Positions 15,676-56,624 of a stretch of 64,000 nt of DNA are shown in pieces. Both the position numbers and the translations under genes were made by a program. The stretch lies in the IMG/VR virus record IMGVR_UViG_3300045988_122291, positions 50,076 to 114,075 of that record; one strand, given 5' to 3'. Origin of the DNA: a virus. Position 1 is the stretch's first letter; every line of letters starts with the position of its first letter. The notes beneath the pieces are model-generated. The model saw nothing but the letters and a program-made list of their open reading frames with translations. It was not told where the DNA came from and searched no databases.

Positions 15676-16029
15676 TTATGAGATTTCAAGTGTGCCATAA
15701 GAGATTTCACCATAATCACCCAGAGAAGATAATTTTACGTCTACTTTGATAGAGAAACCATACTCATTACCTGTAGTAAATTCTTTGATAATTAAATGAA
15801 CACCACCATTTTGACATTGCATTAAAATATCACAAGTCTCTCCCGTATTAGACATGAGTTTCGGTGAAAGCAAAAATCGTGAATTGTAATAGTCTCTAAT
15901 GTAAATATAGCTTGTAGCAGGAACATAAAATTCTCTATAAAAATCAGACCCCATATACAAGTCGTCAATCTTCTTATAAATCATAGCCCCACTTGTTTTC
16001 TCAATTTTTCCAGCTACAATCGCGTTCAT
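15676..16029 (-). CDS. MNGIVTGK-family paralogue P1 (117 aa)
   Basis: MNAIVAGKIEKTSGAMIYK ... ISYGTLEIS; shares termini with eight other ORFs. Confidence 0.7.
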   Translation of the reverse strand: MNAIVAGKIEKTSGAMIYKKIDDLYMGSDFYREFYVPATSYIYIRDYYNSRFLLSPKLMSNTGETCDILMQCQNGGVHLIIKEFTTGNEYGFSIKVDVKLSSLGDYGEISYGTLEIS

Positions 16030-16129
16030 CGTACCACCTCCTTAGAGATGACACGGTTTACGTTACTGTGAAATGCCCCCCCCAAGTGAGCGCATAGTTT
16101 GGTAATTCATAATATTTTCTCCTTTGTTT
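16030..16129 (-). promoter_or_regulatory. poly-G uORF leader L1
   Basis: SD GGAGAA + uORF 16110..16063 (MNYQTMRSLGGGISQ*). G8 tract = C-run 16076-16083. The current frame stops 33 nt before the P1 ATG; the G7/G10 frame is open to the TGA overlapping ATGA at 16029. Confidence 0.6.
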
Positions 16130-16411
16130 TTAATCTTTCTTAGGCGTAGTATAAGACTTAGCGTTTTCACTGTCGCCCATACCAAGAACACCATTTTGTG
16201 TAGTCGGGTCAACAAGTGCGTTCCATACGTTGACACAGACAAGGAAGAGACAGTAAGGATTACTGATAGTACCCTTCAGCACGTTGAGCACGCCTGCCCA
16301 TGTGGTCAAATCTGCCGCTGTTAGACCTGCGTAAGCAAGTGCAGTAGCGAATGCACCAAGAATTACATTTACCCAAAACGCATAGTTTTTAATTCTCACC
16401 TTTAGATTCAT
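16130..16411 (-). CDS. holin (phage_holin_1-like)
   Basis: 93 aa, hydrophobic helices, polar tail DPTTQNGVLGMGDSENA; 1-nt overlap with endolysin stop. Confidence 0.7.
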   Translation of the reverse strand: MNLKVRIKNYAFWVNVILGAFATALAYAGLTAADLTTWAGVLNVLKGTISNPYCLFLVCVNVWNALVDPTTQNGVLGMGDSENAKSYTTPKKD

Positions 16412-18135
16412 TACTCTTCACTCCCATACATACCCACTCTATCGTTAATAACAAGAACTCGTAGCAAATCTTCACTTAGGTCAAGACCCTTGCCATTACC
16501 CTTGAGATAGCCCTTATTCACGAGCTTAATGATAGTGTCCTTACCCCAGTCTGGAACTGAAGCAATGCTATCATATACCTTATTGTACTTAGCGTACACT
16601 TCTTCAGCTACATTGCCAGCAACCTTCTTAGCTTCGGTCTGAGCAATAGCTGTGGTTTCTGCTTTAGTCAAATCTTCCACTCCTTTAACCATGTTTAGGA
16701 AATTAGTCCACTGTTCATAATGTCGCACGAAGGGGTCTGGACAATTACCTACAATAAATGTTTTTGTACCTTGGCGCACAAGAATATATCCTGTTGGCAC
16801 ACTTACACAAGACACTTTAGTTGTACGAGTTTTTACACTCTTCTGAACACCACCAATACTATAATTAGCTGTTAAGCGATCAATAGCAAGATAATCATAA
16901 CGAGTGCTTCTACCTAATCGTGTTTTGTTAGTACGATACCCCTTAGTCGCGCAAACAGCTTGTACAACGTCTAAGTTATTTTGAATAGAAGAAGTATAAA
17001 GATGTCCTGCTTCGCAACCGTCTACTTGTAAACATTCGTTCCAAAATACGTCATATTGGTGTTGATTCATTTCCAATAAATTATATTGGAAATGCTTATC
17101 TTTAAGCCACTGTTCACACCAATAGTAAAGGTCTGTGCCATAATTACGGTAACTTACACTACCATCTTTCTTGTTAGAAACAGTATAGTCAATCATTAGG
17201 TTATCAAGAATCTCTTTAACTCTATCAATCTTGCGTTGTTTCTTAACATGAAACTCAATGCCACATACATCTTGGTAAGTTCCCTTCATATAATGTCCGT
17301 CACCTTGTACCCATACAAGGAATCGAATTTCATCATCAGTGAGAGGTAAACCAGACCCAATATACATAGCACCGTTTTTAACTAAGTTTTGTCGAGAGCC
17401 TGTAAGCATATCTCCCCATAGTTGCTCACGCCATTTATATGTTCCAGTCTTTTTATTAAAATTATTGTTTGCCGCCCACATACGATGATTAGAAGTTGCT
17501 TCAAGACCATGACAGCTTAGAACTTCAGCTTCATAAGGCTCAACCACGCTACTAACAGCGCCAAAAGATAGTCTATCAGTATTAGTGTCATACTGCATAA
17601 CTTCTTCTCCAACCTTAATATCTCCAAGAGCCTTCCAACCTTCGCGTGTTAGAAGTTCGGTTGAATCCAAAGGTAAACAATACTTATGTGTAACATGATA
17701 GTGCATACATACATGCTTAATATCAACCCCATACTGTTCCATAAGCCATTGCACGAGCTTTACAGTACGCTTCTGGGTTTCCATAGTAATTACATATTCG
17801 CCATTCTTCCAGTCGCTGCACATTTCAATACCAATGGAATTAACGTTGCGACAGCTATTGTAATAATAGCCTGTTTCACTACCACAATGCCATGCAGTAT
17901 TAGCAAGGTTTACAGTCTGCCAAATTTCGTTCTCATCAACAAAGAAATGTGCGCTTGCATTAAGCCCACTACAACGAGCAAAATAATCTGCATTGTTCTT
18001 TGCAGTATCGCCCTTGCCAGCAGTAAAGTGAATAACAATCCATTGAATCTTATGCTTTACGCCATTCTTTGTGCGACCATACATAAAATTGGAAGGATTG
18101 CATTCCTTAAATTGAAAATATGGTTTTTCTGCCAT
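16411..18135 (-). CDS. N-acetylmuramoyl-L-alanine amidase endolysin (Amidase_2/PGRP) containing an intein; SLH-like C-terminus
   Basis: IVIHFTAG, AHFFVD, WHCG, HVTHKY|...|CPDPF; C-terminal VPDWGKDTIIKLVNKGYLKGNGKGLDLSEDLLR. Confidence 0.85.
   Translation of the reverse strand: MAEKPYFQFKECNPSNFMYGRTKNGVKHKIQWIVIHFTAGKGDTAKNNADYFARCSGLNASAHFFVDENEIWQTVNLANTAWHCGSETGYYYNSCRNVNSIGIEMCSDWKNGEYVITMETQKRTVKLVQWLMEQYGVDIKHVCMHYHVTHKYCLPLDSTELLTREGWKALGDIKVGEEVMQYDTNTDRLSFGAVSSVVEPYEAEVLSCHGLEATSNHRMWAANNNFNKKTGTYKWREQLWGDMLTGSRQNLVKNGAMYIGSGLPLTDDEIRFLVWVQGDGHYMKGTYQDVCGIEFHVKKQRKIDRVKEILDNLMIDYTVSNKKDGSVSYRNYGTDLYYWCEQWLKDKHFQYNLLEMNQHQYDVFWNECLQVDGCEAGHLYTSSIQNNLDVVQAVCATKGYRTNKTRLGRSTRYDYLAIDRLTANYSIGGVQKSVKTRTTKVSCVSVPTGYILVRQGTKTFIVGNCPDPFVRHYEQWTNFLNMVKGVEDLTKAETTAIAQTEAKKVAGNVAEEVYAKYNKVYDSIASVPDWGKDTIIKLVNKGYLKGNGKGLDLSEDLLRVLVINDRVGMYGSEE
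16744..17679 (-). other. intein (312 aa) with LAGLIDADG homing-endonuclease domain
   Basis: Block A CLPLDSTELLTREGWKALGDIKVGEEV, block B LEATSNHRMW, LVWVQGDGHY, terminal FIVGN followed by the +1 Cys of CPDPF; occupies aa 153-464 of the lysin. Confidence 0.75.
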
Positions 18136-18161: not shown

Positions 18162-18184
18162 AAGGGGAGAATATATCTCCCCTT
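18162..18184 (-). terminator. intrinsic terminator-like hairpin
   Basis: AAGGGGAGA / TCTCCCCTT arms with 5-nt loop, followed on the minus strand by TTTT. Confidence 0.55.
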
Positions 18185-18427: not shown

Positions 18428-18823
18428 TTATTCAAAGTAGCCTATTTCAATTTTATCAAAATAGTCACTCAAATAACCACTTAAACTTCTAATGTGTATT
18501 TCATCTCGGTCGGAATTATACCAAACTGAAAATAATGAGTAATTTTGCCTCGGATAGTTTTTGGGTGATACATAGAAATTATTTTCTTTGTCATCGCTAC
18601 TAATATCTCCCATAAAATTAGTGGGGAAAATAATAACTTCTTTTCCATCTGAAGTTTCTCTGTAAAATCTAAAAAGAATATTGTTTTTCGGCGTGCGATA
18701 TAAATTTGTATTGTATAGCGTTAAATTGTAATCATTCGGCATATTCCATGATTGTGTTACATGAAACACCATAGTGTCTCCGACACTTTTAGTTTCCTGT
18801 TTATTAGTGACAATAGCATTCAT
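18428..18823 (-). CDS. MNGIVTGK-family paralogue P3 (131 aa)
   Basis: MNAIVTNKQETKSVGDTMVF ... KIEIGYFE; own SD GGCGGTGA, no uORF, 19 nt after the P2 stop. Confidence 0.7.
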   Translation of the reverse strand: MNAIVTNKQETKSVGDTMVFHVTQSWNMPNDYNLTLYNTNLYRTPKNNILFRFYRETSDGKEVIIFPTNFMGDISSDDKENNFYVSPKNYPRQNYSLFSVWYNSDRDEIHIRSLSGYLSDYFDKIEIGYFE

Positions 18824-18842: not shown

Positions 18843-19145
18843 TTACTTTATGGAAATTCGATAGAATTTTGCATTTAATCCTTCTCTGTTGTTTGTTGCC
18901 CCCATTATATTTCCATTTTCGAAATATAAATGAACCGATGGTGCGTCTGGACTGACAGAAAAAGTTTTTCCGTCCCATTTTCCAATAGAGAAATCGTAAC
19001 TGTAAAGAATATAAACACAAGGGTCGTTCGCTTTTGGTGTTTCTATTACTGTTCCATGGTATTCTATCCAAAAAGAACTGTTGTACACTATTTCGAACTC
19101 TTTGCTTGTTCCTAATCCAATGGGCAAAGTAATAATTCCGTTCAT
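18843..19145 (-). CDS. MNGIVTGK-family paralogue P2 (100 aa, divergent)
   Basis: Starts MNGIITLPIGLG; preceded by leader L2. Confidence 0.6.
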   Translation of the reverse strand: MNGIITLPIGLGTSKEFEIVYNSSFWIEYHGTVIETPKANDPCVYILYSYDFSIGKWDGKTFSVSPDAPSVHLYFENGNIMGATNNREGLNAKFYRISIK

Positions 19146-19216
19146 TTACTCTGCCCCCCCCAGTTTAATCTGAAGAATGCTCATTGCTCAAATTCCTTTC
19201 TGAGCAATGAGAAGGT
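19146..19216 (-). promoter_or_regulatory. poly-G uORF leader L2
   Basis: uORF 19184..19146 (MSILQIKLGGAE*). G8 tract = C-run 19154-19161, length fixed by ORF-track coordinates. The TAA stop abuts the P2 ATG (TAAATG). The uORF start lies inside the 11-bp hairpin 19180-19211. Confidence 0.6.
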
Positions 19217-19591
19217 TTATTCAAAAGTGCCGATTTCTACTGAAGAAAGGTTATTTCTCATTTTAAAATTATCAGAAACTCCCAAAGCAAGTCTTATGCT
19301 GGGGTCTGAATATTTTTTTACAACCTCTACCCAATCTGCTTCGTTAGGCGAAAGATATGTCGCAATCGTCGAACTGTCGTTATCTACCATTACAAAGCGC
19401 ATTGAAATATAAGCTACTCTGTCACCAAAAGATTCTATTTTTAAGAAATAAGGTGGCTCAAGATAAGAAGTATTTGGCACATAAAAATACATGAGTGCAG
19501 TTGCTTCTGTAGGAACACTGCCTACTAAAGCAGTTTTCCATACCAAACTTCCAGCCTGTTTCTCTTGCTTACCAGTCACAATACCGTTCAC
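19217..19591 (-). CDS. MNGIVTGK-family paralogue P4 (124 aa, GTG start)
   Basis: (V)NGIVTGKQEKQAGSLVWK ... SSVEIGTFE. Confidence 0.7.
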   Translation of the reverse strand: MNGIVTGKQEKQAGSLVWKTALVGSVPTEATALMYFYVPNTSYLEPPYFLKIESFGDRVAYISMRFVMVDNDSSTIATYLSPNEADWVEVVKKYSDPSIRLALGVSDNFKMRNNLSSVEIGTFE

Positions 19592-19746
19592 TCTTGTGCA
19601 CCTTCTTTCGGTGCATACTTCTCATTGCTCAAATAATTTAGTGGGAGACTATGCCCCCCCCCAGTTGAAACTGAGGTTGACTTACAAATACACATTTTTG
19701 TGTCTCCTTTGTTATGTGTTGTTTGTAATTTGAGCAATGGGAAGGG
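19592..19746 (-). promoter_or_regulatory. poly-G uORF leader L3
   Basis: SD GGAGA + uORF 19695..19588 (35 aa). G9 tract 19654-19662, confirmed by the APPQ translation of the plus-strand ORF 19491..19733. Its TGA overlaps the P4 GTG (GTGA). SD hairpin 19597-19615. Confidence 0.65.
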
Positions 19747-20103
19747 TTAAGAAAATAATTCAAAACCTAAATTACTATATTCATTAGTAGTAATAGTATT
19801 GGTATTGAAATTTATGGTAAGCGTTGCAACTGAAGAGCTACCTATGCCATTAAGAGTGATAACCGATTGTTTATAAATAGCCCCTGTTTCATATCCAGAA
19901 CTGCTATTTATAACAATCGCATATTTCTCTTGAGGAAAAATCACACAATAGGTCGTATAATAACTACGATATGTTTCAGTAGCAATAACTGAATATTTAT
20001 CTATATCAGTAATCGTTGCATTACCATTGTAGTATTGCCGAACAGCAGAAGTTGGCACTTTACCACCAGTTGTTTCAATCTTACCCGTTACAATTCCGTT
20101 CAT
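19747..20103 (-). CDS. MNGIVTGK-family paralogue P5 (118 aa)
   Basis: MNGIVTGKIETTGGKVPTS ... NLGFELFS. Confidence 0.7.
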   Translation of the reverse strand: MNGIVTGKIETTGGKVPTSAVRQYYNGNATITDIDKYSVIATETYRSYYTTYCVIFPQEKYAIVINSSSGYETGAIYKQSVITLNGIGSSSVATLTINFNTNTITTNEYSNLGFELFS

Positions 20104-20262
20104 CCAACAGCACCAACTTTCTTCAGTGCTGTTCCATTGCTCAAATTAAAGTTTAGGAGAATGCTAACGCATTGCCCCCCCCCAACTGAAGTCAGGGTTG
20201 ACTGAATGTTAAACATAAATGTTCTCCTTTTGTATAGTTTTTATTTGAGCAATGGAAGGGAA
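20104..20262 (-). promoter_or_regulatory. poly-G uORF leader L4
   Basis: SD GGAGAA + uORF 20216..20100 (38 aa). G9 tract 20175-20183. Its TGA overlaps the P5 ATG (ATGA). Hairpin 20106-20133; 12-bp arms CCATTGCTCAAA 20134-20145 / 20244-20255. Confidence 0.6.
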
Positions 20263-20616
20263 TTACCAATAAATGAAAACTGCCATATTCGTTCCGACAT
20301 ATGTTAATGTCATTGCTGAGAAATCGACAGTATACAATGCTGAAGTTGAAGTAGCGGGAGAATAAAAAGTATAGACAGTATCGGTAATTATTTTTCTATC
20401 TTCCCAATCAACGGGTTGAGGGAGATATATGATATATTTTCCTTGTGGATATATCTCATAGCATCCGTGCGAACTTATATATGTTCTAATGCACCTTAAT
20501 TTAGATATATCGAAAGGAGAATTTGTTTTATCAATAACAGGTCTTTCTATGCTTGTAGGCACAGTATCACTTATACTTTGCTTTTCTTCAATTTTACCGC
20601 TAACAATCCCATTCAT
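20263..20616 (-). CDS. MNGIVTGK-family paralogue P6 (117 aa)
   Basis: MNGIVSGKIEEKQSISDTVPTS ...; C-terminus divergent. Confidence 0.7.
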   Translation of the reverse strand: MNGIVSGKIEEKQSISDTVPTSIERPVIDKTNSPFDISKLRCIRTYISSHGCYEIYPQGKYIIYLPQPVDWEDRKIITDTVYTFYSPATSTSALYTVDFSAMTLTYVGTNMAVFIYW

Positions 20617-20785
20617 ACAGTCACCTGCTTTCGGTGACTAACATTGCTCAAAAAGGACTTTCGCCCTATTAGGAAGTTATTGCCCCCCCCAAGTGAAACA
20701 TAAGTTCACTCAGAGAAAACTTGATACGCATGGTATCACTCCTTGTTATTTAATTGAGCAACGTGTGTGAAGGGTGGTTAAGTGG
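20617..20785 (-). promoter_or_regulatory. poly-G uORF leader L5
   Basis: SD GGAG + uORF 20731..20669 (MRIKFSLSELMFHLGGAITS*). G8 tract 20683-20690. The current frame stops 52 nt before the P6 ATG; the G9/G6 frame is open for 24 codons to the overlapping TGA. SD hairpin 20620-20638. Confidence 0.6.
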
Positions 20786-21127
20786 TTAGGAAATTTCGAG
20801 AATGCCAAGTTCTAATGAGTTCATACATTCGCTAAAAGGAATGAAACGTGAAGCAGAATTAGTTCGAACCATACAAGCGCCTTGCCACTGGCTACAATAA
20901 ATGTTGTCTGGTAAATCCAGTGTTATGTGCCTTTCATCATCTCGCGAAATCACGAAATTTTTCACGCAAATTAAAGTAATATTATTACTTTTATCTATAA
21001 TACGAATATACTTCAAAGCATTATAGTCAAAAGTAAAATTTGATTGACTTAAATCAATCGACTGTTCACTCTTAAACACCATACTACCAGCAGTCTTTTC
21101 AATCTTGCCAGTTACTATACCATTCAT
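20786..21127 (-). CDS. MNGIVTGK-family paralogue P7 (113 aa)
   Basis: MNGIVTGKIEKTAGSMVFKSEQ ... SLELGILEIS; ATG 21127 preferred over the GTG at 21130. Confidence 0.7.
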   Translation of the reverse strand: MNGIVTGKIEKTAGSMVFKSEQSIDLSQSNFTFDYNALKYIRIIDKSNNITLICVKNFVISRDDERHITLDLPDNIYCSQWQGACMVRTNSASRFIPFSECMNSLELGILEIS

Positions 21128-21250
21128 CACAAGACCTCCTTTCGGAGGTTGCCAATCCTGTTGCTCAAAGGAAAGGCATTTCCAATCATTAGGTTAGAAC
21201 AATGCCCCCCAAGTGAATGAGAGTTTTAGTCTTAATCATATGTATTCTCC
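21128..21250 (-). promoter_or_regulatory. poly-G uORF leader L6
   Basis: SD GGAGAA + uORF 21239..21189 (MIKTKTLIHLGGIVLT*). G6 tract 21205-21210. The G7 frame is open for 26 codons to the TGA that shares its A with ATG 21127. CCTCC-GAAA-GGAGG hairpin 21135-21148 buries the SD. Confidence 0.6.
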
Positions 21251-21679
21251 TTACATATTGTCTACAATTTCGTGCATCTTATCTTCAAGATGAATCGCAA
21301 CGAACGATAGTAACGCCCATGCACAACAGAAGAATAGATTACACTGTCCAAAAAAGAAGGTAAACGGTAAGTGGCTGTAATCCCACACATCCATATGCAG
21401 GATGTTATTCAGCACTACACCAGTTAATCCTTCAAGAACTGTGATAACCACGGTTCCAATTACTACTTGTTGCCATTGCTTGAATTGGTGTTTTCCTTCG
21501 TTTAGCAGTCCTACAATAACGAAACATAGCCCGCCGAGAACTGCCATAGTCCAGTTGGTTGGTTTGCCTTTCCAAATGGTTTCGATGGCGAAGTAAAGCA
21601 TACCACCCATCACACCAAACAGCGCATGGACAAGTATTGAATTTAGTTTATGCTTCATAGCTTTAAGCCAACTTAGCAA
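21251..21679 (-). CDS. polytopic membrane protein (DUF1113 / putative ABC-transporter type IV-like)
   Basis: 4-5 TM helices, VWDYSHLPF motif. Confidence 0.55.
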   Translation of the reverse strand: MLSWLKAMKHKLNSILVHALFGVMGGMLYFAIETIWKGKPTNWTMAVLGGLCFVIVGLLNEGKHQFKQWQQVVIGTVVITVLEGLTGVVLNNILHMDVWDYSHLPFTFFFGQCNLFFCCAWALLSFVAIHLEDKMHEIVDNM

Positions 21680-22795: not shown

Positions 22796-22824
22796 ATTAT
22801 ACCACATCCTTATACATTTGTCAA
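22796..22824 (-). promoter_or_regulatory. sigma-A-type promoter
   Basis: TTGACA (22824-22819) N17 TATAAT (22801-22796); 5'-UTR hairpin AGGCGA/TCGCCT at about 22768-22784. Confidence 0.55.
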
Positions 22825-26959: not shown

Positions 26960-27150
26960 ATTATAGCATTGTTATAATTGCTTTAGTCTTATACAATCTC
27001 CACAAGCGTAGATTATACTGTTCGGTTATGCCCTAACCTACTCGGTTATGCCCTAACCTACAGTTTATTTATAATTATTATGAATAAGCTATTTCAAGCC
27101 CTTTTTTCAAGATGTTAACACTTGCGTTAATATCTCTATCATGTTTAGTA
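26960..27150 (-). ncRNA. candidate TnpB omega/reRNA scaffold (bounds approximate)
   Basis: By analogy: TnpB guide RNAs derive from the 3' end of tnpB plus the right end of the element; no covariance model was run. Confidence 0.3.
27021..27060. repeat. tandem 20-bp direct repeat (2 copies, 19/20 identical)
   Basis: ttcggttatgccctaaccta / ctcggttatgccctaaccta, 18-57 nt downstream of the tnpB stop. Confidence 0.7.
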
Positions 27151-28187
27151 TGGCACTCAGGACACTCCCAAGTACGAACATCCAGATTCTTAACCAGAGG
27201 ATTCTTGTAACCACAGTAGCTACAAGTCTGGCTACTTGGGTACATAGTAGGGACACTGATTACCGTATTACCATACCATTCACCTTTATACTTGAGCATA
27301 GCAAAGAATTTAGACCACGAAGCACTTGCGATTGACCGCGCAAGATTATGATTACGCATCATACCTTTTACATTCAAGTCCTCTATGCAGATAGTTTGGT
27401 TTTCGCGTATCAGCATAGTTGACTGCTTTTGTAAAAAGTCATTTCTTTGATTAGTAATCTTTTCGTAGATACAAGCTAACTTAATACGTTGTTTATTACG
27501 ATTGTTAGAGCCTAATTGCTTACGAGAAAGACCGCGCTGTGCTCTAATGAGTTTACGAGCAGATTTCTCTAAAAACTTTGGATTAGGAATTTTGTTACCG
27601 TTACTATCTGTATAGAAATCTTTAATTCCCACATCAATACCAACAGTTCCATTTGCATTGTTCATAAGCTGTGGCTCAAAATCAACATTGAGAACTACGA
27701 AATATTTGCCAGACGGTGTTCTTTCAACAGTGACATTGTTAATATGCCCAACTTCCATAGATTGTTTAATTTTTATATATCCCAATTTAGGCAATCTAAT
27801 ATATTTCCCTACAATGCGAATAGTATTTACATGGTTAATCGTTCTATAAGACTGATAATTGTTATGTTTATTCTTAAATTTTGGATATTTAGACTTTTTA
27901 GCAAAGAATTTTTTATAACCTTTATCTAAATCTCTTAAAGATTGCTGCAGAGCAATAGAATCCAATTCTTTAAGAAAATTAAATTCTTCTTGTTGTTTAA
28001 GTGCCGTTAGCATGGCACAAGTTCCACTATACCCAACACTAATGCCATTTTTATAGGAATCTCTACGCATAACCAGACCTTTATTATACACAAGTCTGCA
28101 ACCGCCAAAAATTCGATTTATTAAATTTTTCTGTGTTTTATTGGGATAGACCCTGAATTTAATACCTTTTTGCATATAATTTCCCAT
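27078..28187 (-). CDS. tnpB: TnpB (IS200/IS605-family RNA-guided nuclease), no tnpA partner
   Basis: [11 protein letters not shown]-terminus; RuvC residues in GIDVGIKD and [11 protein letters not shown]; zinc finger CSYCGY...[18 protein letters not shown]. Confidence 0.9.
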
Positions 28188-32931: not shown

Positions 32932-33312
32932 TTATTCCAAAAATCCAAAAGTTAAAGATTTTAATAAACCAAAAGAAGAAGTTCCTGCTATATGTTGTTT
33001 CTCCCAATATATATCGTCATCATCACGTGTCCGGAAGCGGTAAAATTTAATACTTTCATAAATTGAATCATTTTCACCCAAAAGTTCAAAAGAACCACCT
33101 ACACTGAATGAATTTATAGACAGATAAGTATATGCTATTCCTGTTGGTTGTTGCATACCTATTCTTAGCGTATATTTATAAAATCTTCCAACCAAATCAT
33201 AATATCTTAATTCATACGGAGAGTTGTCATTCGCAACATCCCATACAGCAACTTCGTTAAATACCAAACTTCCGGCTGGCTTTTCCATTTTACCAGAGAT
33301 AATTGCGTTCAT
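32932..33312 (-). CDS. MNGIVTGK-family paralogue P8 (126 aa)
   Basis: MNAIISGKMEKPAGSLVFNE ... SLTFGFLE. Confidence 0.7.
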   Translation of the reverse strand: MNAIISGKMEKPAGSLVFNEVAVWDVANDNSPYELRYYDLVGRFYKYTLRIGMQQPTGIAYTYLSINSFSVGGSFELLGENDSIYESIKFYRFRTRDDDDIYWEKQHIAGTSSFGLLKSLTFGFLE

Positions 33313-33429
33313 GCAATCACCTCCTTACTGCTTACAGCGTTAAGCCGTATGCCCCCCCCAAGTGGAAACAAAGTTTACTAATTTAAACATAAAAATGCCC
33401 TCCTTTAATTTATGTTATGAGGAAAATCC
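33313..33429 (-). promoter_or_regulatory. poly-G uORF leader L7
   Basis: SD GGAGGG + uORF 33390..33340 (MFKLVNFVSTWGGHTA*). G8 tract 33352-33359. The current frame stops 27 nt before the P8 ATG; the G7/G10 frame is open to the TGA overlapping ATGA. Confidence 0.6.
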
Positions 33430-38716: not shown

Positions 38717-39973
38717 TTATAATGCCCCACAAATTTTTCTCCTTTCAGTCAAAAACGAAGTTTTTGTACTTACAAAAAGAAGATTTTTATAATTTATAGA
38801 GCCATTATTTACTTTAATTCCTGTAAGATTCCGAATATCAAAATATCCACTGTTTCTTCTTCCGAAAACAAAATATTCTTCACCTTTGTATTTAACTTTA
38901 TCAAATAATCTAAAACCTTTAACAAAATACGGTGCTTGATTGTTTTTTCTAAGCCCTCCTTTGTAAATTTTTTGCTTGTGTATTTTTCTGTTATGACATC
39001 TAACCTTTTTTTGAAAATAATAATATCCAAGAGATTGTGCATTTGGATTACCACTAATACAACGAGCATCTATATAATGTCCTTTTGGTAAATTATGCGA
39101 AATTCTAACTCGCTTAGTAATATATCCATAAGTTTCTTGCACACTTGAATATTTTTTCTTTAATTCAAGAATTAAAGTTTTCTTCATAACGTTCATAAAA
39201 GTAGCATCTCTAAAAGATTTTCCGCTACAAACTGTATTTGGTAATTTAATCAAACCTTTATGATAGTCTCTGTGACATGATTTGCATAAAGTAACTAAAT
39301 TACTTGGAGAATTGCCACCAGTTTTGCGAGACTTAATATGATGAACATTTAAGATTTGGTCTTTAGACTTGCCTTTGCAACATTGACAAGTATGATTATC
39401 TCTAAATAATACATATTCTCTTACGTTCCAAAAGCCTTCTTGCTCTCCATGCTGATACTCTGTATTACTAATATTTGGATTTTTGAGTTTTTGAGTGTCA
39501 AAAGAAGCTACTTCAACAATTATATTCTTGATAGGAAGAATGTGACAAATATTGTCAATAACTGTTAAATGTGTTTGTACCTTTTGCTTAACGCTCGGTG
39601 CTAACCACCCCTTCTTTTTTGAAGAAACGCGATTATTAAATCTTGGCTTTCGATACCTCGTTTTTCTATATCTTCGTGCTCTTCGACATTCTTTTCGAGA
39701 AGAAAGCAAATTAACAATATCATTTCTCAACTCGATTTCTGCTTCATACATTACTTTTGTTTGAGTAGAAGCAGATGCTCCAATATACTTGCTCCCTGCA
39801 TCAATTCCCAAACTAATATTTTGAACATATTTAGTAGAATTATACAAAAGTTGTATAACAAATGGACATCGTTTTATTACTTTAGCTTTTCCTTCTTTTA
39901 GCAAACGTCTAACTTTACCATGTCTGGAAGTAGGCATAAGGGGATTGCCTTGAGCGTCTAAAACATAAACCAT
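38717..39973 (-). CDS. iscB: IscB-type RNA-guided nuclease (PLMP + split RuvC + HNH)
   Basis: N-terminal NPLMPTSRHGKVRRLL (PLMP/RRXRR), RuvC-I LGIDAGSKYIG, Arg-rich bridge CRRARRYRKTRYRKPRF, RuvC-II IVEVASFD, HNH CQCC...NVHHIKSRKTGGNSPSNLVTLCKSCH, RuvC-III HYIDARC. Confidence 0.85.
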   Translation of the reverse strand: MVYVLDAQGNPLMPTSRHGKVRRLLKEGKAKVIKRCPFVIQLLYNSTKYVQNISLGIDAGSKYIGASASTQTKVMYEAEIELRNDIVNLLSSRKECRRARRYRKTRYRKPRFNNRVSSKKKGWLAPSVKQKVQTHLTVIDNICHILPIKNIIVEVASFDTQKLKNPNISNTEYQHGEQEGFWNVREYVLFRDNHTCQCCKGKSKDQILNVHHIKSRKTGGNSPSNLVTLCKSCHRDYHKGLIKLPNTVCSGKSFRDATFMNVMKKTLILELKKKYSSVQETYGYITKRVRISHNLPKGHYIDARCISGNPNAQSLGYYYFQKKVRCHNRKIHKQKIYKGGLRKNNQAPYFVKGFRLFDKVKYKGEEYFVFGRRNSGYFDIRNLTGIKVNNGSINYKNLLFVSTKTSFLTERRKICGAL

Positions 39974-40169
39974 TATTTACCTCACTTATCAAATAAGTAA
40001 TTCAGACAAAAGTCTGTTGTGTAACCTTCGCCAATGTTGTAATAGCTTTTTACATTTAGCACACTGATTTAATGCCAAACAATAGAGCAAAGGACTAAGT
40101 TAAACATCCTTTGGTATTATAACTAAAACAACGTAGTCATTAAAGACTTAGGCTAATTAGAACTCTTAT
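39974..40169 (-). ncRNA. candidate IscB omega-RNA (bounds approximate)
   Basis: 196-nt non-coding gap immediately 5' of iscB, where IscB omega-RNAs are encoded; contains hairpins (CAGAC/GTCTG, TCACTTAT/ATAAGTAA). Confidence 0.4.
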
Positions 40170-41006
40170 TCAGAAAACAAGAGTTCTAATAGCTTCGTTA
40201 ATCTGATTCTGTTCATGCTTAATGTAACGAGTAGTAGTAGCGATAGAATTATGTCCCAACATTGCACTAATAGTTGCTACACCTACGCCATTAGCATTAG
40301 CAATAGTAGCCGCTCCCGCTCTAAGCGCATGATTAGTGATTTCATTCCAGAACGGAATGCCAGCACGCTTTGCGGTCAACTTCAGCATCTTGTTAAGATT
40401 GCTATTATCAAGATGTTCACCACGTTCAGAAGTGAAAAGATACTCACCATCTGCACGTTCAAACTTGATATAGTTATCAATGCTTTCCTTTGCCTGTTCG
40501 TTGATGTAAATCGTGCGTTCCTTCGCACCCTTGCCGAGAATAACAATCTGATTGTCAATCATGTTATTGTAATCCTCAAAAGTGATAGAAGTCAGTTCAC
40601 TAAAACGAAGTCCGGTAGAGCAATACAGAGCAATAACTGCAACATCTCTGAACTTTTTGCAGTTATGAAGCATCTTGCTTACGTCCTCTGCGGAGATATA
40701 ATGCTTTTCCTTGTTCTTAATCTTAGGAGAAGTAAAGTCAAGAGCAGGATTCTCATTGATAACCTTGGCAGAAGTCAGAAACTTGAAGTAATTTCTAACT
40801 GCACTAATCTGGATATTCATGGATGCGGTAGACAGATTGCTGATAGACGCTTTCCATGCGGTCAAGTCGAGGAAAGTGATTTCTTCGACAGGCTTGTTAA
40901 CGAACGCCAGCATCTTATCTACATAAAGCAGATAATTCTTGATAGTGTTTTTGGATTTCTTATCAGCTACCAGAGAAGCCTTGTAATACTCGTTAATGTT
41001 AGTCAT
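40170..41006 (-). CDS. tyrosine recombinase / integrase (XerC/D-like)
   Basis: SAM-like N-domain; HALRAGAAT and LGHNSIATTTRYIK catalytic motifs; start at ATG 41006 behind GGAGAG. Confidence 0.85.
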   Translation of the reverse strand: MTNINEYYKASLVADKKSKNTIKNYLLYVDKMLAFVNKPVEEITFLDLTAWKASISNLSTASMNIQISAVRNYFKFLTSAKVINENPALDFTSPKIKNKEKHYISAEDVSKMLHNCKKFRDVAVIALYCSTGLRFSELTSITFEDYNNMIDNQIVILGKGAKERTIYINEQAKESIDNYIKFERADGEYLFTSERGEHLDNSNLNKMLKLTAKRAGIPFWNEITNHALRAGAATIANANGVGVATISAMLGHNSIATTTRYIKHEQNQINEAIRTLVF

Positions 41007-41183
41007 TTGAAATCTCTCCTTCGTTTCTTGATGTATGTATTGTAACATGGTACAAGCCAAAAGTCAATAGATTTTTCAAAAAAATCAGAAAAGAATTTCC
41101 CGACTCATACATGGCAAGATGAGTCGGGAATTATGGAGGTGAAAAACCATGAAGAACGAAGCCTTCTATGGCACAGATATGGT

Positions 41184-41258
41184 TGGCACAAGACTTAGGA
41201 CTTTAACCTAAACGAACAGTTTTGGAGACTGTCATGCTAACAATTACATCAGTCTTGC
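41184..41258 (-). tRNA. tRNA-Trp: tRNA-Trp (anticodon CCA)
   Basis: Hand-folded cloverleaf: acceptor GCAAGAC/GTCTTGT, anticodon arm ACAGT-CTCCAAA-ACTGT, T arm TTAGG-TTAAAGT-CCTAA, discriminator G, encoded CCA. Confidence 0.7.
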
Positions 41259-41261
41259 ATA

Positions 41262-41336
41262 TGGAGCGCTATGGCGTAATCGAAACGCTATCTTCAGTTT
41301 GGAAAACTGAGGTTCTTACCGTTAAACTAATAGCGC
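41262..41336 (-). tRNA. tRNA-Gly: tRNA-Gly (anticodon TCC)
   Basis: Acceptor GCGCTAT/ATAGCGC, anticodon arm TCAGT-TTTCCAA-ACTGA, discriminator U, encoded CCA. Confidence 0.8.
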
Positions 41337-41452
41337 AAATTGTCCCGCGACCCAAAGGTACGTCATGTGCACTTGACTTGTTTTCCACTGGGAATCGCAG
41401 TACAGTCATGAGCTAAACCGCAATAAACGTGAACTTAACAAACGGGGAACAT

Positions 41453-41528
41453 TGGTAGCGATGGTGCGATTCGGACGCACGAAATCATGGAGTCAAAGTC
41501 CATTGCCTTACCGCTTGGCTACACCGCT
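41453..41528 (-). tRNA. tRNA-Gln: tRNA-Gln (anticodon TTG)
   Basis: Acceptor AGCGGTG/CATCGCT, anticodon arm ATGGA-CTTTGAC-TCCAT, T arm GTGCG-TCCGAAT-CGCAC, encoded CCA. Confidence 0.75.
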
Positions 41529-41694
41529 ATATTTCTCCTACGATGACGGGTCGCAGGAGAGAAATATGAAATTATGCCGACACGTTTGAGCGTGTCTATT
41601 AAATTGTTTGTCTGCCGTACCAGACGATGTGTGTGGAATGTATATTTTTATTTTCTGCACTTAATACAAAAAATTTACCTTGTACGGAAGGCAT

Positions 41695-41770
41695 TGGTCT
41701 CCCATCGCAGGCTCGAACTGCGGACTTCTTGATTAAAAGTCAAGTGCTCTACCAACTGAGCTAATGGAAG
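41695..41770 (-). tRNA. tRNA-Lys: tRNA-Lys (anticodon TTT)
   Basis: D arm GCTCAGTTGGTAGAGC, anticodon arm CTTGA-CTTTTAA-TCAAG, T arm CGCAG-TTCGAGC-CTGCG, encoded CCA. Confidence 0.85.
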
Positions 41771-41778
41771 ATTTGATT

Positions 41779-41792
41779 GGGGCAAATGCCCC
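41779..41792 (-). terminator. short GC hairpin (terminator or processing site)
   Basis: GGGGCA-tt-TGCCCC between the small CDS 41798..41902 and tRNA-Lys. Confidence 0.35.
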
Positions 41793-41797
41793 ATCAC

Positions 41798-41902
41798 TTA
41801 TCGTAGATTGTAACGGTCTACACCGCGCATATTCTTCTGCATCTCAAGATTTGCTTCATAGAGACCACGGAAGAAATGCTTAATATTGCTCTTAACACCC
41901 AT
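41798..41902 (-). CDS. small protein (34 aa)
   Basis: GGAGGTGA SD 6 nt before the ATG; own TTGACA-N17-TACAAT promoter overlapping the sigma gene 3' end. Confidence 0.45.
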   Translation of the reverse strand: MGVKSNIKHFFRGLYEANLEMQKNMRGVDRYNLR

Positions 41903-41938
41903 CGGTATCACCTCCTAACATTATCTATTGTATCACAC

Positions 41939-42553
41939 TTATCTCATTTTGTCAAGTGTTTTTAGAATTTTTTCGATATAAATTTTTCTTTCAGCGTCAT
42001 CGTCACTATAACGTTTTACATATCTGGAATTGCGCTTATAATAATCTCGCAAATTTCTCACAACAGCAGAACATCTACTAAAAGAAACACCTGTATCTTC
42101 GCTTAGTTCTCGGCACGTTTTATTCTCAATTCTACCAAGTAAAACTTTAAGCGTTGTCAATGGTAGTTTTTCGATAAACCATTCTGCCCATATCTTCCCC
42201 AGCGCTTCAGCTTCAGTATTTTGCTTAGAAGCAATAAATTCTTCTAAAGCATATGTTGCTTTTTCGCTGACCGAAGAAACTTCTGCGCTTAAAGAAAGTG
42301 TTTCCATGCCAAATAAGCTATCATGTCTCATTACACTGCGTATACTATTAAGCATACATTTATAAGCAAGCGTAGAAAATTTTGTTGTGCCATTAAAAGT
42401 TAATGCCGCTTTGCACAATCCAATAGCACAAATATCATACCATTCGTTGATACTTAGAGCTTGATTATTCAAAAAAGAATAAATTAGATTGTGGTTTTCT
42501 TCTACCAGCTTTCTTTGTTCATTATTCAGTTTTGAAATTTTTGTTTCGCGCAT
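41939..42553 (-). CDS. sigma-70 family sigma factor (phage-encoded, small)
   Basis: 204 aa; region 2-like N-half and region 4 HTH (CRELSEDTGVSFSRCSAVVRNL). Confidence 0.7.
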   Translation of the reverse strand: MRETKISKLNNEQRKLVEENHNLIYSFLNNQALSINEWYDICAIGLCKAALTFNGTTKFSTLAYKCMLNSIRSVMRHDSLFGMETLSLSAEVSSVSEKATYALEEFIASKQNTEAEALGKIWAEWFIEKLPLTTLKVLLGRIENKTCRELSEDTGVSFSRCSAVVRNLRDYYKRNSRYVKRYSDDDAERKIYIEKILKTLDKMR

Positions 42554-42577
42554 AAGTATCTTCCTTTTAATTTTTAG

Positions 42578-42651
42578 TGGAGCGAATGACGGGTACTGCC
42601 CCCGCGTCCTCAGTTTGGGAAACTAAAATTCTACTATTGAACTACATCCGC
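42578..42651 (-). tRNA. tRNA-Gly: tRNA-Gly (anticodon CCC)
   Basis: Acceptor GCGGATG/CATTCGC, anticodon arm TTAGT-TTCCCAA-ACTGA, discriminator U, encoded CCA. Confidence 0.75.
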
Positions 42652-42749
42652 ATATGATAACAGGGAACGAGTTAGAAAGAAGGTATGTCAAAAGAAGGAG
42701 AAAAAATCTCGTTCCCTGTTATTTACTTATGTTTATTATGTTTTAGAAG

Positions 42750-42893
42750 TTATCGCTTAAACTTCGGCAGAAGGTTATGATTTGCGTCCTCAAGCATATT
42801 CTGCACTGCAAGGTCATACTTCTGCTTCTCGGTCATAGGCTTGTTCTTCTTTTCGTTTTCCTTTGCTCGGCGGTTATTCTTAGCCATTTTCAT
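42750..42893 (-). CDS. small basic protein (47 aa)
   Basis: MKMAKNNRRAKENEKKNKPMTEKQKYDL...; weak GGAA SD. Confidence 0.4.
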   Translation of the reverse strand: MKMAKNNRRAKENEKKNKPMTEKQKYDLAVQNMLEDANHNLLPKFKR

Positions 42894-42909
42894 TTCGTTC
42901 CTTTCAAAA

Positions 42910-43551
42910 TCAGTTTACAATGTACACATTACGATATTGTACACCAAGGTTGCTTGCTTCAGACTTAGAGCCTACTGCAATATCAATAATGTTGCCCTTA
43001 ATTGCACCGCCTGTATCAGCGCAATAAAAAACACCATTAAAACCTTCAATTCTAATCTTAGAGCCAAGAGGAATTACACGAGGGTCAACAGCTACAGTAT
43101 ACCACGGTGTTACTGGTGTACCAAGAGCAGTAATTGAACCGCCTTCATCGGCTGAGCCTGTGTAGAAAGTACATTTCATACGAGCTACAAGTCGACCACG
43201 CTTGGCTTCTTCTGCTTTTCTCTTAGCTTCTTCTTCAGCCTTGCGCTTTGCTTCTGCTTCGCGTTCAGCATTGAGCGCTTTGTTATAATCTTCTGTTAGT
43301 GCTACTACGGTTTCATTATGTTCATCCCACTTGTCCTTGGCATGGAGAATAATGAAATCATCTTCTTCTGCTCCCAGAGTTCTTGCACATTCAGCAAGCT
43401 GGTGAGCAGTGTTTCGCATTGTGATTGCTTCATCGAGATTGGATTTAATCTCCGCACTCGTCTGGCTTGAAGCAAAAGCCGATGTAGAAAGACATACACC
43501 AACCATCACTACGGTAGCGAAACTTTTTGTTAGTTTGTTTCCAAACTTCAT
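42910..43551 (-). CDS. secreted 3D-domain cell-wall protein (MltA/RlpA-like barrel)
   Basis: Signal peptide MKFGNKLTKSFATVVMVGVCLSTSAFA, EAKRKAEEEAKRKAEE coil, 3D domain VAVDPRVIPLGSKIRIEG...YCADTGGAIKGNIIDI; the ORF-track 5' extension overlaps tRNA-Met. Confidence 0.8.
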   Translation of the reverse strand: MKFGNKLTKSFATVVMVGVCLSTSAFASSQTSAEIKSNLDEAITMRNTAHQLAECARTLGAEEDDFIILHAKDKWDEHNETVVALTEDYNKALNAEREAEAKRKAEEEAKRKAEEAKRGRLVARMKCTFYTGSADEGGSITALGTPVTPWYTVAVDPRVIPLGSKIRIEGFNGVFYCADTGGAIKGNIIDIAVGSKSEASNLGVQYRNVYIVN

Positions 43552-43598
43552 TGGTATCGCGTCCTTTCGTTTATTTTGGTTTTTGTTCTCTTGAACAA

Positions 43599-43677
43599 TG
43601 GTAGCCCGTGTGGTGCTCGAAACCACGAAATCTTCCGGTTATGAGCCGGATGCTTTAACCAACTTAGCTAACGGGCT
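43599..43677 (-). tRNA. tRNA-Met: tRNA-Met (anticodon CAT; could be Ile2-type)
   Basis: Acceptor AGCCCGT/ACGGGCT, anticodon arm TCCGG-CTCATAA-CCGGA, T arm GTGGT-TTCGAGC-ACCAC, encoded CCA. Confidence 0.75.
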
Positions 43678-43707
43678 ATATATCGAGGGCATATTGCCCT
43701 CAGTATT

Positions 43708-43788
43708 TTACTTAGTGCTGTGACGCTTGGTGCAGTCACCATAACACCATTCTTCAAAGTCTACTGACTTGTCATACTGATAACCCAT
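43708..43788 (-). CDS. small protein (26 aa)
   Basis: GGAGGTAAG SD, own TTGACA-N17-TACAAT promoter, followed by the GAGGGCA/TGCCCTC hairpin. Confidence 0.4.
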   Translation of the reverse strand: MGYQYDKSVDFEEWCYGDCTKRHSTK

Positions 43789-44007
43789 GATACTTACCTC
43801 CTTTGTTCACTTAAACATTGTATCACGACCTTTCGCCGTTGTCAAGTATAATTTTTAATTTGATATTGCGTACTACTGCAAGAAGCGAAACGAAATTTGT
43901 TCTTGTCTCTGTTTATATATGGCTCTACACTTGGAACAAATATCTGCAAATATTTGTGCGTAGTCGCACCATACGCCGCTCATTTCATACGCTATATCAT
44001 TTATGTT

Positions 44008-44066
44008 TGGCTGAACAGGACTTGAACCTGTATCTCACACGCGTGTTCCCAATTACACCATCAGTC
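44008..44066 (-). pseudogene. tRNA-like remnant lacking an anticodon arm
   Basis: D arm GTGT-AATTGGGA-ACAC and T arm ACAGG-TTCAAGT-CCTGT with only 10 nt between them; sequence verified against the plus-strand ORF translation. Confidence 0.3.
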
Positions 44067-44188
44067 AATATAAACCCGTCTTTATTCATCAAACCTGAAG
44101 CCACAGGTAACGGTTGTGATGATTATTTTTGAAAGGAGTCGTGCTTCTGGTAGTAATAGAAGCACATGAAAAATGAAAAAGATGTGGT

Positions 44189-45028: not shown

Positions 45029-45129
45029 TTGTAATTCACCTTTTCTGAATTTTAATTTTAGCGAAGGCTCAAAGGAAAAGGCTTTGTTGTCTCAATAATT
45101 AGCTTTATTATTGCTACCCTATCGCTAAG

Positions 45130-53935: not shown

Positions 53936-53940
53936 ATAAA

Positions 53941-56160: not shown

Positions 56161-56520
56161 TTATTCGAGTGTTCCAAGTTCAATAGATGTATAATAATCA
56201 TTTAGATTTAAAAAATCTTGGTCATTATTGTACATTGTTATATTTACATAACTATTATTGGTAGGTCTCGTAAATCGCGTCCAAACCGTATTATTATAAG
56301 GCTCTGGATAGAAGCAAAACCAATATTTAAGGGCAGCCGGGTCAGTACAAAAAGCACAAATAATAGAAATTAAATTATTTTTTGTCACAACTTTAATATA
56401 CTTATTAGTTATATTTGTATAAAAAGTATAATCTGTATTATATAAATCAGCTATTTGTTCAGTCTTAAACACCAAACTTCCTGCTTGCTTTTCCTGCTTA
56501 CCAGCAACAATAACATTCAT
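56161..56520 (-). CDS. MNGIVTGK-family paralogue P9 (119 aa)
   Basis: MNVIVAGKQEKQAGSLVFKTEQ ... SIELGTLE; ATG 56520 preferred over the TTG at 56526. Confidence 0.7.
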   Translation of the reverse strand: MNVIVAGKQEKQAGSLVFKTEQIADLYNTDYTFYTNITNKYIKVVTKNNLISIICAFCTDPAALKYWFCFYPEPYNNTVWTRFTRPTNNSYVNITMYNNDQDFLNLNDYYTSIELGTLE

Positions 56521-56624
56521 CAGCAATCACCACCTTTCGGCAGTCGATTACTTAACCAATGCCCCCCCCAAGTGGCGAGGTGGTTTGATAATGCTAAATG
56601 TTCTCATAGGGAACACTCCTTTTC
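56521..56624 (-). promoter_or_regulatory. poly-G uORF leader L8
   Basis: SD GGAG + uORF 56607..56548 (MRTFSIIKPPRHLGGALVK*). G8 tract 56562-56569. The G7/G10 frame is open to the TGA that shares its A with ATG 56520. CTGCC-GAAA-GGTGG hairpin 56530-56543 covers the SD. Confidence 0.6.

Follow-up and report, generated by a model that had tools for sequence, protein, structure and literature searches.

Length-variable poly-G tracts in the leader open reading frames of a phage gene family: candidate modules for phase-variable translational switching

Introduction

The leader peptide encoded upstream of the pil1 pilus genes of Streptococcus gallolyticus contains GCAGA repeats, and a long leader lets the ribosome destabilise a terminator stem-loop, which turns the genes on (Danne et al. 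2014, PMC3894217). The present work concerns a comparable arrangement in a phage: in 64,000 nucleotides (nt) of viral DNA (positions 50,076 to 114,075 of the IMG/VR record IMGVR_UViG_3300045988_122291; hereafter, the window), eight genes of a hypervariable paralogous family are each preceded by a short leader open reading frame (ORF) with a run of G residues inside it. An initial annotation of the window, made from its letters, took a repeat borne by an upstream ORF and gating downstream genes to be a thing not described before; pil1 is in fact a precedent (PMC3894217). As in pil1, a simple-sequence repeat in a short leader ORF would set how far ribosomes travel toward a downstream stem-loop. 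The pil1 system differs in having GCAGA repeats and, as its stem-loop, a transcription terminator. In the phage, a G homopolymer forms the repeat, the predicted stem-loop lies at the start codon of the downstream gene and holds its Shine-Dalgarno (SD) sequence, and the stop of the leader can overlap that start. Besides, pil1 is one bacterial locus, whereas 9-11 loci are found in the phage.

Concerning phages, Sorensen et al. are said to have described in 2021 Campylobacter phages with hypermutable poly-G tracts. The likeness lies in the several length-variable poly-G tracts of a phage genome, from which phenotypic subpopulations result in that case; the difference is that the Campylobacter phage tracts lie within the regulated coding sequences, including those of receptor-binding proteins, and truncate them, whereas here they lie in a separate leader ORF. 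In T2, T4 and other phages, polymerase slippage at short repeats is used for bet-hedging (Gomez, Barrick & Waters 2025 preprint, PMC12633550), but those contingency loci are intragenic frameshifts in ordinary genes, with no leader-ORF module, SD hairpin or paralogue family.

Concerning bacteria, the Neisseria opa genes form a multi-locus phase-variable family of about 11 loci (PMC3745409). The present family resembles opa in that about ten dispersed hypervariable paralogues each have their own repeat, most of them predicted OFF and few ON, which would give the system a combinatorial character. The CTCTT repeats of opa are within the gene, in the stretch that codes for the signal peptide, unlike the separate, putatively coupled leader ORF of the present modules, whose carrier is a virus. 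In Helicobacter pylori, a variable G run in the mRNA leader of tlpB tunes translation via the small RNA (sRNA) RepG (PMC8295292); that repeat is an untranslated sRNA target, whereas the tracts considered here lie inside ORFs led by an SD and having frame-dependent stops. The repeat in the 5' untranslated region of Haemophilus hmw acts through RNase III (PMC12721329). In literature searches that covered phase variation, leader peptides, translational coupling and poly-G in combination, no description of the present arrangement was found. By analogy, it may be classed as a contingency locus working via a leader ORF and translational coupling, repeated about ten-fold in a phage, with pil1 and the Campylobacter phages as its closest kin.

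Poly-G tracts within leader ORFs

The eight tract loci of the window were named modules A to H; I and J are module types known from relatives only. A machine count, in which C on the + strand stands for G on the coding - strand, gave five runs of eight (modules A, B, E, G and H), two of nine (C and D) and one of six (F), at the positions listed in Table 2. The sole further G or C run of at least 6 nt in the 64 kb is a G6 at 54273-78 on the + strand. The eight positions and lengths are exactly those of the initial annotation, which had also counted the tracts as eight of nine such runs. Runs of at least 8 nt number seven, against about 0.2 expected at 37% GC.

The family has nine genes in the window and, as initially annotated, eight of them have a leader ORF in front, the exception being 18823-18428. 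Each of the eight tracts sits inside such a leader ORF, which carries its own SD upstream of the family gene, and starts 7.7-13.7 codons into it. The strong SD sequences originally ascribed to all the leaders were recovered in seven of them (AAGGAG, in module G within AAAGGAGG; 7-8 nt 5' of the ATG), the SD of module B being the weaker AAAGGAA. Similarly, the sequence context given for the tracts, CACTTG(n)CAT, held in part: CA follows the tract in all eight loci and CAT in five, CACTT precedes it in five (AAACT, CAACT or CAGTT in the rest), and the complete context occurs in just four. The tract lies 39-77 nt 5' of the main start in seven modules and 8 nt 5' of it in module B, which is degenerate. 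The family ORFs lack any G run of at least 6 nt, the tract being always in the separate upstream ORF. The encoded peptide does not account for the homopolymer because GGG makes up 6% of the Gly codons in long ORFs, which bears out the earlier argument that the tract is not a peptide motif.

One coupling frame in each module

The leader ORFs were rebuilt in silico with tract lengths from n-3 to n+3 at each locus. At each of the eight window loci, one frame after the tract is open through the spacer (39-83 nt; 8 nt in B) and reaches a stop that overlaps the main start, with the junctions ATGA (A, D, E and G), GTGA (C) or TGATG (F and H), while in the degenerate module B the junction is TAAATG at G8. 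The non-coupling frames meet a stop 30-69 nt 5' of the main start, and no frame joins a leader to its family ORF. The same anatomy was found when the window was considered together with 33 fetched relatives (34 sequences and 106 module instances in all). Among 25 distinct spacers belonging to 11 module types, the coupling frame contains zero stops, and each of the remaining two is first interrupted by a stop 2-19 nt 3' of the tract. Exactly one coupling frame is present in 105 of the 106 instances; the junctions seen in relatives include TAATG (in L058) and a TAA located 3 nt 5' of the ATG (I locus of L054).

With shuffled spacers, the full frame pattern was obtained with P = 0.02-0.05 per locus. 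Multiplying over nine locus types, taken as independent, gives about 1e-13, a value to be read as an upper bound on significance because the paralogues are non-independent and the 19-nt limit was set post hoc.

The current tract lengths predict the state of each module. C and D have the G9 that coupling needs and are predicted ON; E (G8, needs G9), F (G6, needs G7) and A, G and H (G8, need G7 or G10) are predicted OFF. The early stops of the array modules fall 49-75 nt before the main start, well 5' of the hairpin described below, and those of the single-copy loci just 22-36 nt before it. A further trait of the junction concerns the second residue of the family proteins, an invariant Asn (AAY codon), with MD... 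variants using TGATG or TAATG junctions. This invariance may be owed in part to the ATG-A that makes the overlapping TGA.

Predicted hairpins at the main-gene SD

Folds were run on the segment that begins where the tract ends and extends 12 nt into the family gene. In nine of the ten module types, the SD of the main gene (GGAGG or GGUG) was predicted to lie in the 3' arm of a hairpin, mostly with a loop of the GAAA type. In these predicted folds the arms vary in sequence with their complementarity kept: CACC/GGUG in C and E, CCUCC/GGAGG in F, CAUCUC/GAGGUG in A, CACCUCGC/GUGGGGUG in I, CAGCAC/GUGCUG in D and CUGCC/GGUGG in H. Where orthologues of I and C differ, pairing is kept via G-U or A-U pairs. 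A MAFFT structural alignment did not bring the SD hairpins into register.

The accessibility of the SD was then estimated with 60 nt of upstream context, and 38 other window genes with a recognisable SD were used as controls. The median predicted probability of the SD being unpaired was 0.17 for the seven canonical family genes versus 0.55 for the controls (Mann-Whitney p = 4e-5). The values for the array ranged from 0.009 (module D) to 0.33. It can be said that the hairpins are not intrinsic terminators, since they have no T run and the start codon follows directly 3' of each.

Tract-length polymorphism in relatives

Members of the family are rare: 46 proteins were retrieved from 5.8 billion sequences by a word-indexed search, and 93, at E <= 0.001, from 1.84 billion representatives by an exhaustive hidden Markov model search. 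The homologues are all unannotated and come from human-gut metagenomes or from phage contigs of about 110 kb. There was no megablast match among deposited phages, and IMG/VR contained three related contigs only. Concerning the host, a 'Lachnospiraceae' label on one homologue, an SLH domain, and Phage_holin_1 and Amidase_2 matches suggest Firmicutes. A 'Melainabacteria' host was discarded, as it came from a single GTDB match to a 2.6-kb contig that is probably mis-binned.

The tract lengths of the 106 instances are summarized in Table 1. G8 occurs in 74 of them, and at all loci a single-nucleotide change separates it from the coupling frame. Assemblies made independently (ENA, Logan, IMG/VR and a metagenome-assembled genome of GTDB) carried the same tracts at matching positions.

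Table 1. Lengths of the poly-G tracts by locus, with number of copies in brackets
Locus	Tract lengths (copies)
C	G8 (2), G9 (7), G10 (1)
D	G7 (3), G8 (8), G9 (1)
E	G7 (1), G8 (9), G9 (8)
F	G7 (3), G8 (12)
J (array gene not in window)	G6 (3), G7 (1), G8 (11), G9 (1)
J/F hybrid (window F; L057)	G6 (1), G8 (1)
C/D-like (L054, L055)	G7 (2)
B (window only)	G8 (1)
A	G8 (6)
G	G8 (14)
I	G8 (7); one CACT+G9 copy (L054) outside the 106
H	G8 (3); one G9 copy (L028) outside the 106

Contigs from different samples that are identical outside the tracts over 3.2-4.2 kb (0 mismatches, 0 gaps) differ in tract length: the E tract is 8 in L015 and 9 in L020, and the D tract is 7 in L016 and 8 in L021. In L016 versus L018, with one mismatch elsewhere, the C tract is 9 versus 8. 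Under the same exact-flank criterion, five of six array G tracts vary, while the A/T runs of 6-8 nt, about 28 in number, show no variation in about 170 copy comparisons. Indels in the array tracts are thus far faster than base substitution and specific to G runs, and we hold with high confidence that these tracts are hypermutable at the DNA level. The switching by tract length put forward in the initial annotation, and the comparison of lengths across relatives that it recommended, therefore had a divided outcome: the tandem array ranges from G6 to G10, in line with the idea, whereas the single-copy loci A, G, H and I are almost invariably G8.

In each complete array, the ON frame is found in one or two modules, which are not the same in every lineage: F in L001 and L002; C in L014, L015, L019 and L022; E in L018, L054 and L055; E together with C in L016 and L017; and C together with D in the window. 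Given the relatedness of the genomes, this pattern is no more than suggestive.

Proposed mechanism and alternatives

We consider it reasonably probable that each module is a phase-variable translational switch, in which slipped-strand changes of the leader ORF act through translational coupling. The parts of the module would be, in order, an SD, a short leader ORF, the poly-G tract, the spacer, the SD-masking hairpin and the family gene. Slipped-strand mispairing at phage DNA replication would add or remove a G, and the length of the tract would set the frame of the leader ORF downstream of it. In two frames, the ribosome would halt 2-19 nt past the tract, the SD hairpin would stay shut and the gene would be poorly translated (OFF). 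In the third frame, the ribosome would cross the spacer and the hairpin and end on the stop that overlaps the main start, the SD would be unmasked and re-initiation could take place (ON). With 9-11 modules per genome, a phage population would contain many combinations of expressed family members. We infer that the leader ORFs are translated, that the main genes depend on them, and that switching occurs within populations. The initial proposal of a slippage-prone tract in an upstream ORF that gates the paralogues is supported by the frame anatomy, the predicted sequestration of the SD and the length polymorphism. A wider view, attractive and still tentative, is that of a combinatorial switchboard of about ten independent switches, by which one genotype would continually spawn virions or infections with varied subsets of proteins. 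These would be exchangeable modules for interaction with the host, whether receptor-binding tips or packaged anti-defence factors, in a system in which the modules would serve as recombination joints.

Several observations weigh against the coupling model, and part of them would fit better an alternative that we regard as unlikely, namely that the tracts are hypermutable and their effect is a graded 'volume control' or negligible. The main genes would then be translated mostly from their own SDs, and the leader ORF would do no more than adjust the efficiency, for instance according to the distance between the terminating ribosome and the hairpin. At the single-copy loci, all the copies of A (6/6) and G (14/14) and the CACTT-flanked copies of I (7/7) are G8, and H is G8 in three copies and G9 in one (L028), all of them off the coupling frame. 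Despite the OFF prediction, these cassettes are intact and diversifying, and even lineage-variable, with two different genes behind the same G-type leader. Since the early stops of these loci are so near to the start, a terminating or scanning ribosome could open the hairpin or re-initiate, and the single-copy loci may be leaky or graded instead of OFF. Their SDs are also strong (AAGGAGGTG), and that of G is predicted to be unpaired when the fold begins right after the tract, becoming paired once the 60 nt of upstream context are included. Other points against the coupling model are of a general kind: the length changes were seen in consensus assemblies from different samples, i.e., they are comparisons between genomes; the combined P values overstate the significance of the frame pattern, the paralogous modules being non-independent; and the model leaves the inverted repeats of 14-19 nt in the array unexplained. 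On the other hand, a graded effect is difficult to reconcile with the array, where the early stops are well 5' of the hairpin and the SDs are strongly masked according to the predicted folds, and without coupling it would be difficult to account for the strict retention of a stop/start overlap in a single frame.

Homopolymers are slippage sites for RNA polymerases, and G8, one step from the coupling frame everywhere, is by far the commonest length. Every genome could then have coupled translation at a steady low level, owing to slippage of RNA polymerase or to programmed frameshifting of the ribosome on the G run, and the differences in DNA length would be incidental. This explanation is improbable, as coupling calls for an extra nucleotide (+1) at C, D and E, and for one fewer (-1) at A, F, G, H, I and J; the first G of the tract also falls on codon position 1, 2 or 3 depending on the module, such that no single frameshift signal fits. 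These differences in direction and codon position argue against a programmed recoding signal, there is no conserved slippery heptamer or stimulator, and variation at the DNA level, including ON lengths, was directly observed. Transcriptional slippage or ribosomal frameshifting on G8 may be an added layer of the coupling mechanism. A switch at the level of DNA or transcription, with the tract tuning promoter spacing or with inverted repeats driving recombinase inversion (cf. cwpV of Clostridioides difficile), would be in keeping with the tyrosine integrase of the phage and with the inverted repeats on either side of the leader segments (arms of 17-19 nt at a distance of about 90 nt) and of the genes (12-15 nt, perfectly matched, at about 400 nt). 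We rate it as very improbable. In the search for sigma-70-like promoters with the tract in the spacer, the best reached 8/12 matches at any tract length from 6 to 10; inversion is unsupported because all 106 module instances lie upstream of the family gene and on its same strand, with no C run of at least 6 nt on the coding strand of L054 or L055; the single-copy modules are without inverted repeats; and the integrase gene is about 20 kb away. The possibility that neither the tracts nor the leader ORFs have any function, i.e., that homopolymer errors of sequencing or assembly coincide with chance ORFs, would draw on the fact that homopolymer indels are a weak point of short-read data, but it is already largely refuted and hardly credible, given the recurrence of the tracts at the same positions in independent assemblies, the constancy of the A/T runs, the excess of long G runs over expectation, and the non-random frame anatomy and hairpins.

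Some other candidates were considered and rejected. As there is one run per locus, an intramolecular G-quadruplex cannot be formed by the tract, and this was discarded by reasoning. A C-rich sRNA of the RepG kind was also discarded on the evidence of folding, the sole coding-strand C-rich run, located at 54270-54282, having no convincing sRNA fold (z = -2.2); this run is complementary to the G tracts. A double-glycine leader of the bacteriocin type was not a satisfactory description of the leader peptides, as just the E-type peptide is loosely similar, the peptides are unconserved and the tract length shifts their frame. No Rfam family was found in or near the modules.

Features and transcription of the tandem array

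The coordinates of the array and of the single-copy modules are collected in Table 2.

Table 2. Features of the tandem array and of the single-copy modules in the window (positions in the window; leader peptides are given up to the stop; aa, amino acids)
Feature	Position	Strand	Remarks
Promoter	22796..22824	-	perfect sigma-70-type TTGACA-17-TATAAT with TG; head of array operon
Leader ORF F (MIKTKTLIHLGGIVLT)	21189..21239	-	predicted OFF at G6; chimera of J-type 5' half and F-type 3' half
Poly-G tract F (G6)	21205..21210	-	F-type tracts in relatives G7 or G8
SD hairpin F (ACCUCC-GAAA-GGAGGU)	21134..21149	-	6 nt before main ATG; coupling frame ends TGATG
Family gene F (113 aa)	20786..21127	-	AlphaFold2 pLDDT 81, 8-strand all-beta
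Leader ORF E (MRIKFSLSELMFHLGGAITS)	20669..20731	-	predicted OFF at G8; needs G9
Poly-G tract E (G8)	20683..20690	-	relatives G7, G8, G9
SD hairpin E (AGUCACC-GAAAGCA-GGUGACU)	20619..20639	-	predicted fold
Family gene E (117 aa)	20263..20616	-	
Leader ORF D (38 aa at G9)	20100..20216	-	predicted ON; TGA overlaps main ATG (ATGA)
Poly-G tract D (G9)	20175..20183	-	relatives G7 or G8
SD hairpin D (ACAGCAC...GUGCUGU)	20107..20132	-	predicted SD unpaired probability 0.009
Family gene D (118 aa)	19747..20103	-	
Leader ORF C (35 aa at G9)	19588..19695	-	predicted ON; TGA overlaps main GTG (GTGA)
Poly-G tract C (G9)	19654..19662	-	relatives G8, G9, G10
SD hairpin C (UGCACC-GAAAGAA-GGUGCA)	19595..19617	-	predicted fold
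Family gene C (124 aa, GTG start)	19217..19591	-	
Leader ORF B (MSILQIKLGGAE)	19146..19184	-	degenerate module; TAA abuts main ATG (TAAATG) at G8
Poly-G tract B (G8)	19154..19161	-	machine count
Collapsed inverted-repeat hairpin, module B	19180..19211	-	11-bp stem, 10-nt loop; contains SD and ATG of leader ORF B
Family gene B (100 aa, divergent)	18843..19145	-	G5 tract remnant (ATGGGGGCAAC) in 3' part, near 18902
Ninth family gene (131 aa)	18428..18823	-	without leader ORF or tract; 19 nt after B stop
Terminator-like hairpin (intrinsic)	18162..18184	-	array operon end
Inverted-repeat arm R, module C (core TTGAGCAATG)	19618..19634	-	complement of L core
Further R arms	20132-20147 (D), 20642-20654 (E), 21160-21168 (F)	-	
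Inverted-repeat arm L (core CATTGCTCAA)	19726..19741	-	just 3' of gene D
Further L arms	19201-19214, 20243-20257, 20754-20762	-	
Leader ORF A (MNYQTMRSLGGGISQ)	16063..16110	-	off coupling frame at G8; needs G7 or G10
Poly-G tract A (G8)	16076..16083	-	G8 in 6/6 copies
SD hairpin A (CAUCUC-UAAG-GAGGUG)	16035..16050	-	predicted fold
Family gene A (117 aa)	15676..16029	-	downstream of holin gene
Leader ORF G (MFKLVNFVSTWGGHTA)	33340..33390	-	off coupling frame at G8; needs G7 or G10
Poly-G tract G (G8)	33352..33359	-	G8 in 14/14 copies
Family gene G (126 aa)	32932..33312	-	downstream of DnaB-like helicase gene
Leader ORF H (MRTFSIIKPPRHLGGALVK)	56548..56607	-	off coupling frame at G8; needs G7 or G10; junction TGATG
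Poly-G tract H (G8)	56562..56569	-	G8, G8, G9 in three IMG/VR relatives
SD hairpin H (CUGCC-GAAA-GGUGG)	56530..56543	-	predicted fold
Family gene H (119 aa)	56161..56520	-	

All the genes in the array part of the window are on the - strand. After the promoter, the operon contains a 132-aa gene, a 226-aa gene (both with weak tail-fibre matches in PHROGs) and a gene for a 142-aa membrane protein (PF06541), followed by the array in the order F-E-D-C-B, the ninth family gene and an 80-aa ORF that precedes the terminator-like hairpin. No promoter comparable to that at the head of the operon was found within the array. With a single promoter and terminator, and none internal, the individual array genes would be controlled post-transcriptionally, which fits the leader-ORF design. 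Gene B has the look of a fusion between a family gene and the leader module, now decayed, of its downstream neighbour.

Inverted repeats and cassette exchange

The inverted repeats of 14-19 nt are confined to the tandem array (19180-21168), where they flank leader segments and family genes. Arm L lies just 3' of each array family gene, and arm R is placed 3' of the tract and 5' of the SD hairpin. Two pairings are open to L: with the R of the following module (17-19 nt, one mismatch), leaving a loop of about 90 nt that encloses the leader SD, the ATG and the tract, or with the R across its own gene. A complementarity matrix favoured neither option. The minimum free energy folds of C, D and E include the L/R stem directly against the SD hairpin. 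Only ribosomes in the coupling frame cross R, as the out-of-frame stops are always 5' of it.

The modules behave as recombination joints for cassette exchange. One leader type precedes different family genes across lineages, and in the window F module (21115-21270, - strand) the 5' half is of J type and the 3' half of F type, gene J having been lost by deletion. In L054 (6880-6960), a J-type 5' flank and an F-type 3' flank join precisely at the tract.

Two observations concern the locus of the single-copy module I. In L054 (127-250), a T-to-G change makes CACTT+G8 into CACT+G9, and the downstream gene codes for a different 100-aa protein (MNAKVIKEML...), the coupling frame being kept, with its TAA before the ATG. 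In the window, a TnpB/IS605 OrfB-like transposase ORF (27078-28187, - strand; phrog_506, E = 5e-133) occupies the place where L001 and L004 hold family member I with a G8 module; TnpB is at the I position also in L051 and L052.

The family proteins

The nine paralogues have 100-131 aa and share an N-terminal MNGIVTGKxEK and a C-terminal SxExGxLE. An AlphaFold2 model of F, built on an alignment of 52 sequences (mean predicted local distance difference test, pLDDT, 81; predicted template modelling score, pTM, 0.71), predicts an eight-strand all-beta domain at residues 16-112, behind a disordered tail. Conservation in the family is highest in this N-terminal tail (residues 1-15; 21083-21127, - strand, in F), where M1, N2, I4, K8 and E10 are invariant; the rest is hypervariable. 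As the tail codons differ synonymously between paralogues, the conservation is at the protein level.

The family proteins had no match in Pfam or PHROGs, and a sequence search of the PDB gave nothing significant. Foldseek against the PDB and BFVD gave no significant hit either (best E = 0.06), its weak matches including fibre-head and tail proteins. A profile search also returned giant proteins (988-5703 aa, with 5-20 matched stretches) that carry Listeria-Bacteroides, fn3 or cadherin repeats; they were judged to be additive repeat artefacts and were rejected. Our guess is a virion or host-interaction role, on the basis of the neighbouring tail-fibre-like and lysis genes; a hypervariable domain preceded by a conserved N-terminal peptide for docking or targeting could point the same way. 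More speculatively, and by analogy, the tail might be a docking peptide, or a targeting peptide cleaved by a protease like those of the T4 internal proteins.

Other features of the window

A HEARO RNA (Rfam RF02033, 100 bits; 40016-40190, - strand) lies directly 5' of a 418-aa HNH-endonuclease ORF (38717-39973, - strand), and both look like a pair of the IscB/omega-RNA type carried by a phage. The tyrosine integrase ORF is at 40170-41060. A cluster of seven tRNA genes occupies 41187-45208 (- strand), with an HNH endonuclease ORF at 44189-45028. The endolysin ORF (16411-18135, - strand) codes for 574 aa, versus 260-263 aa in relatives, and its Amidase_2 domain spans residues 28-153 only; the insert, which begins at ...YC|LPLD and ends at ...VGN|C, is probably an intein or a homing-endonuclease insertion. 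Finally, about 2 kb at 53000-54960, between divergent transcription units, are without convincing ORFs and contain many G5/C5 runs (GGAAAGGGGGTGG, CCCTCCCCCCTGC, TTTCCCCCTCATTCCCCC).

Implications

If the proposed mechanism is true, phase variation can run through translational coupling, and a portable cassette of about 120 nt makes the gene downstream of it stochastic, with coding sequence and promoter untouched. Such a cassette could be used as a component in synthetic biology. Selection evidently keeps the members of this hypervariable family individually switchable, which makes the family worth characterising. The system would then be a phage counterpart of Neisseria opa, with a gating mechanism new to phase variation, and as a multi-locus combinatorial system of a phage it bears on the bet-hedging of gut phages against host diversity and defence.

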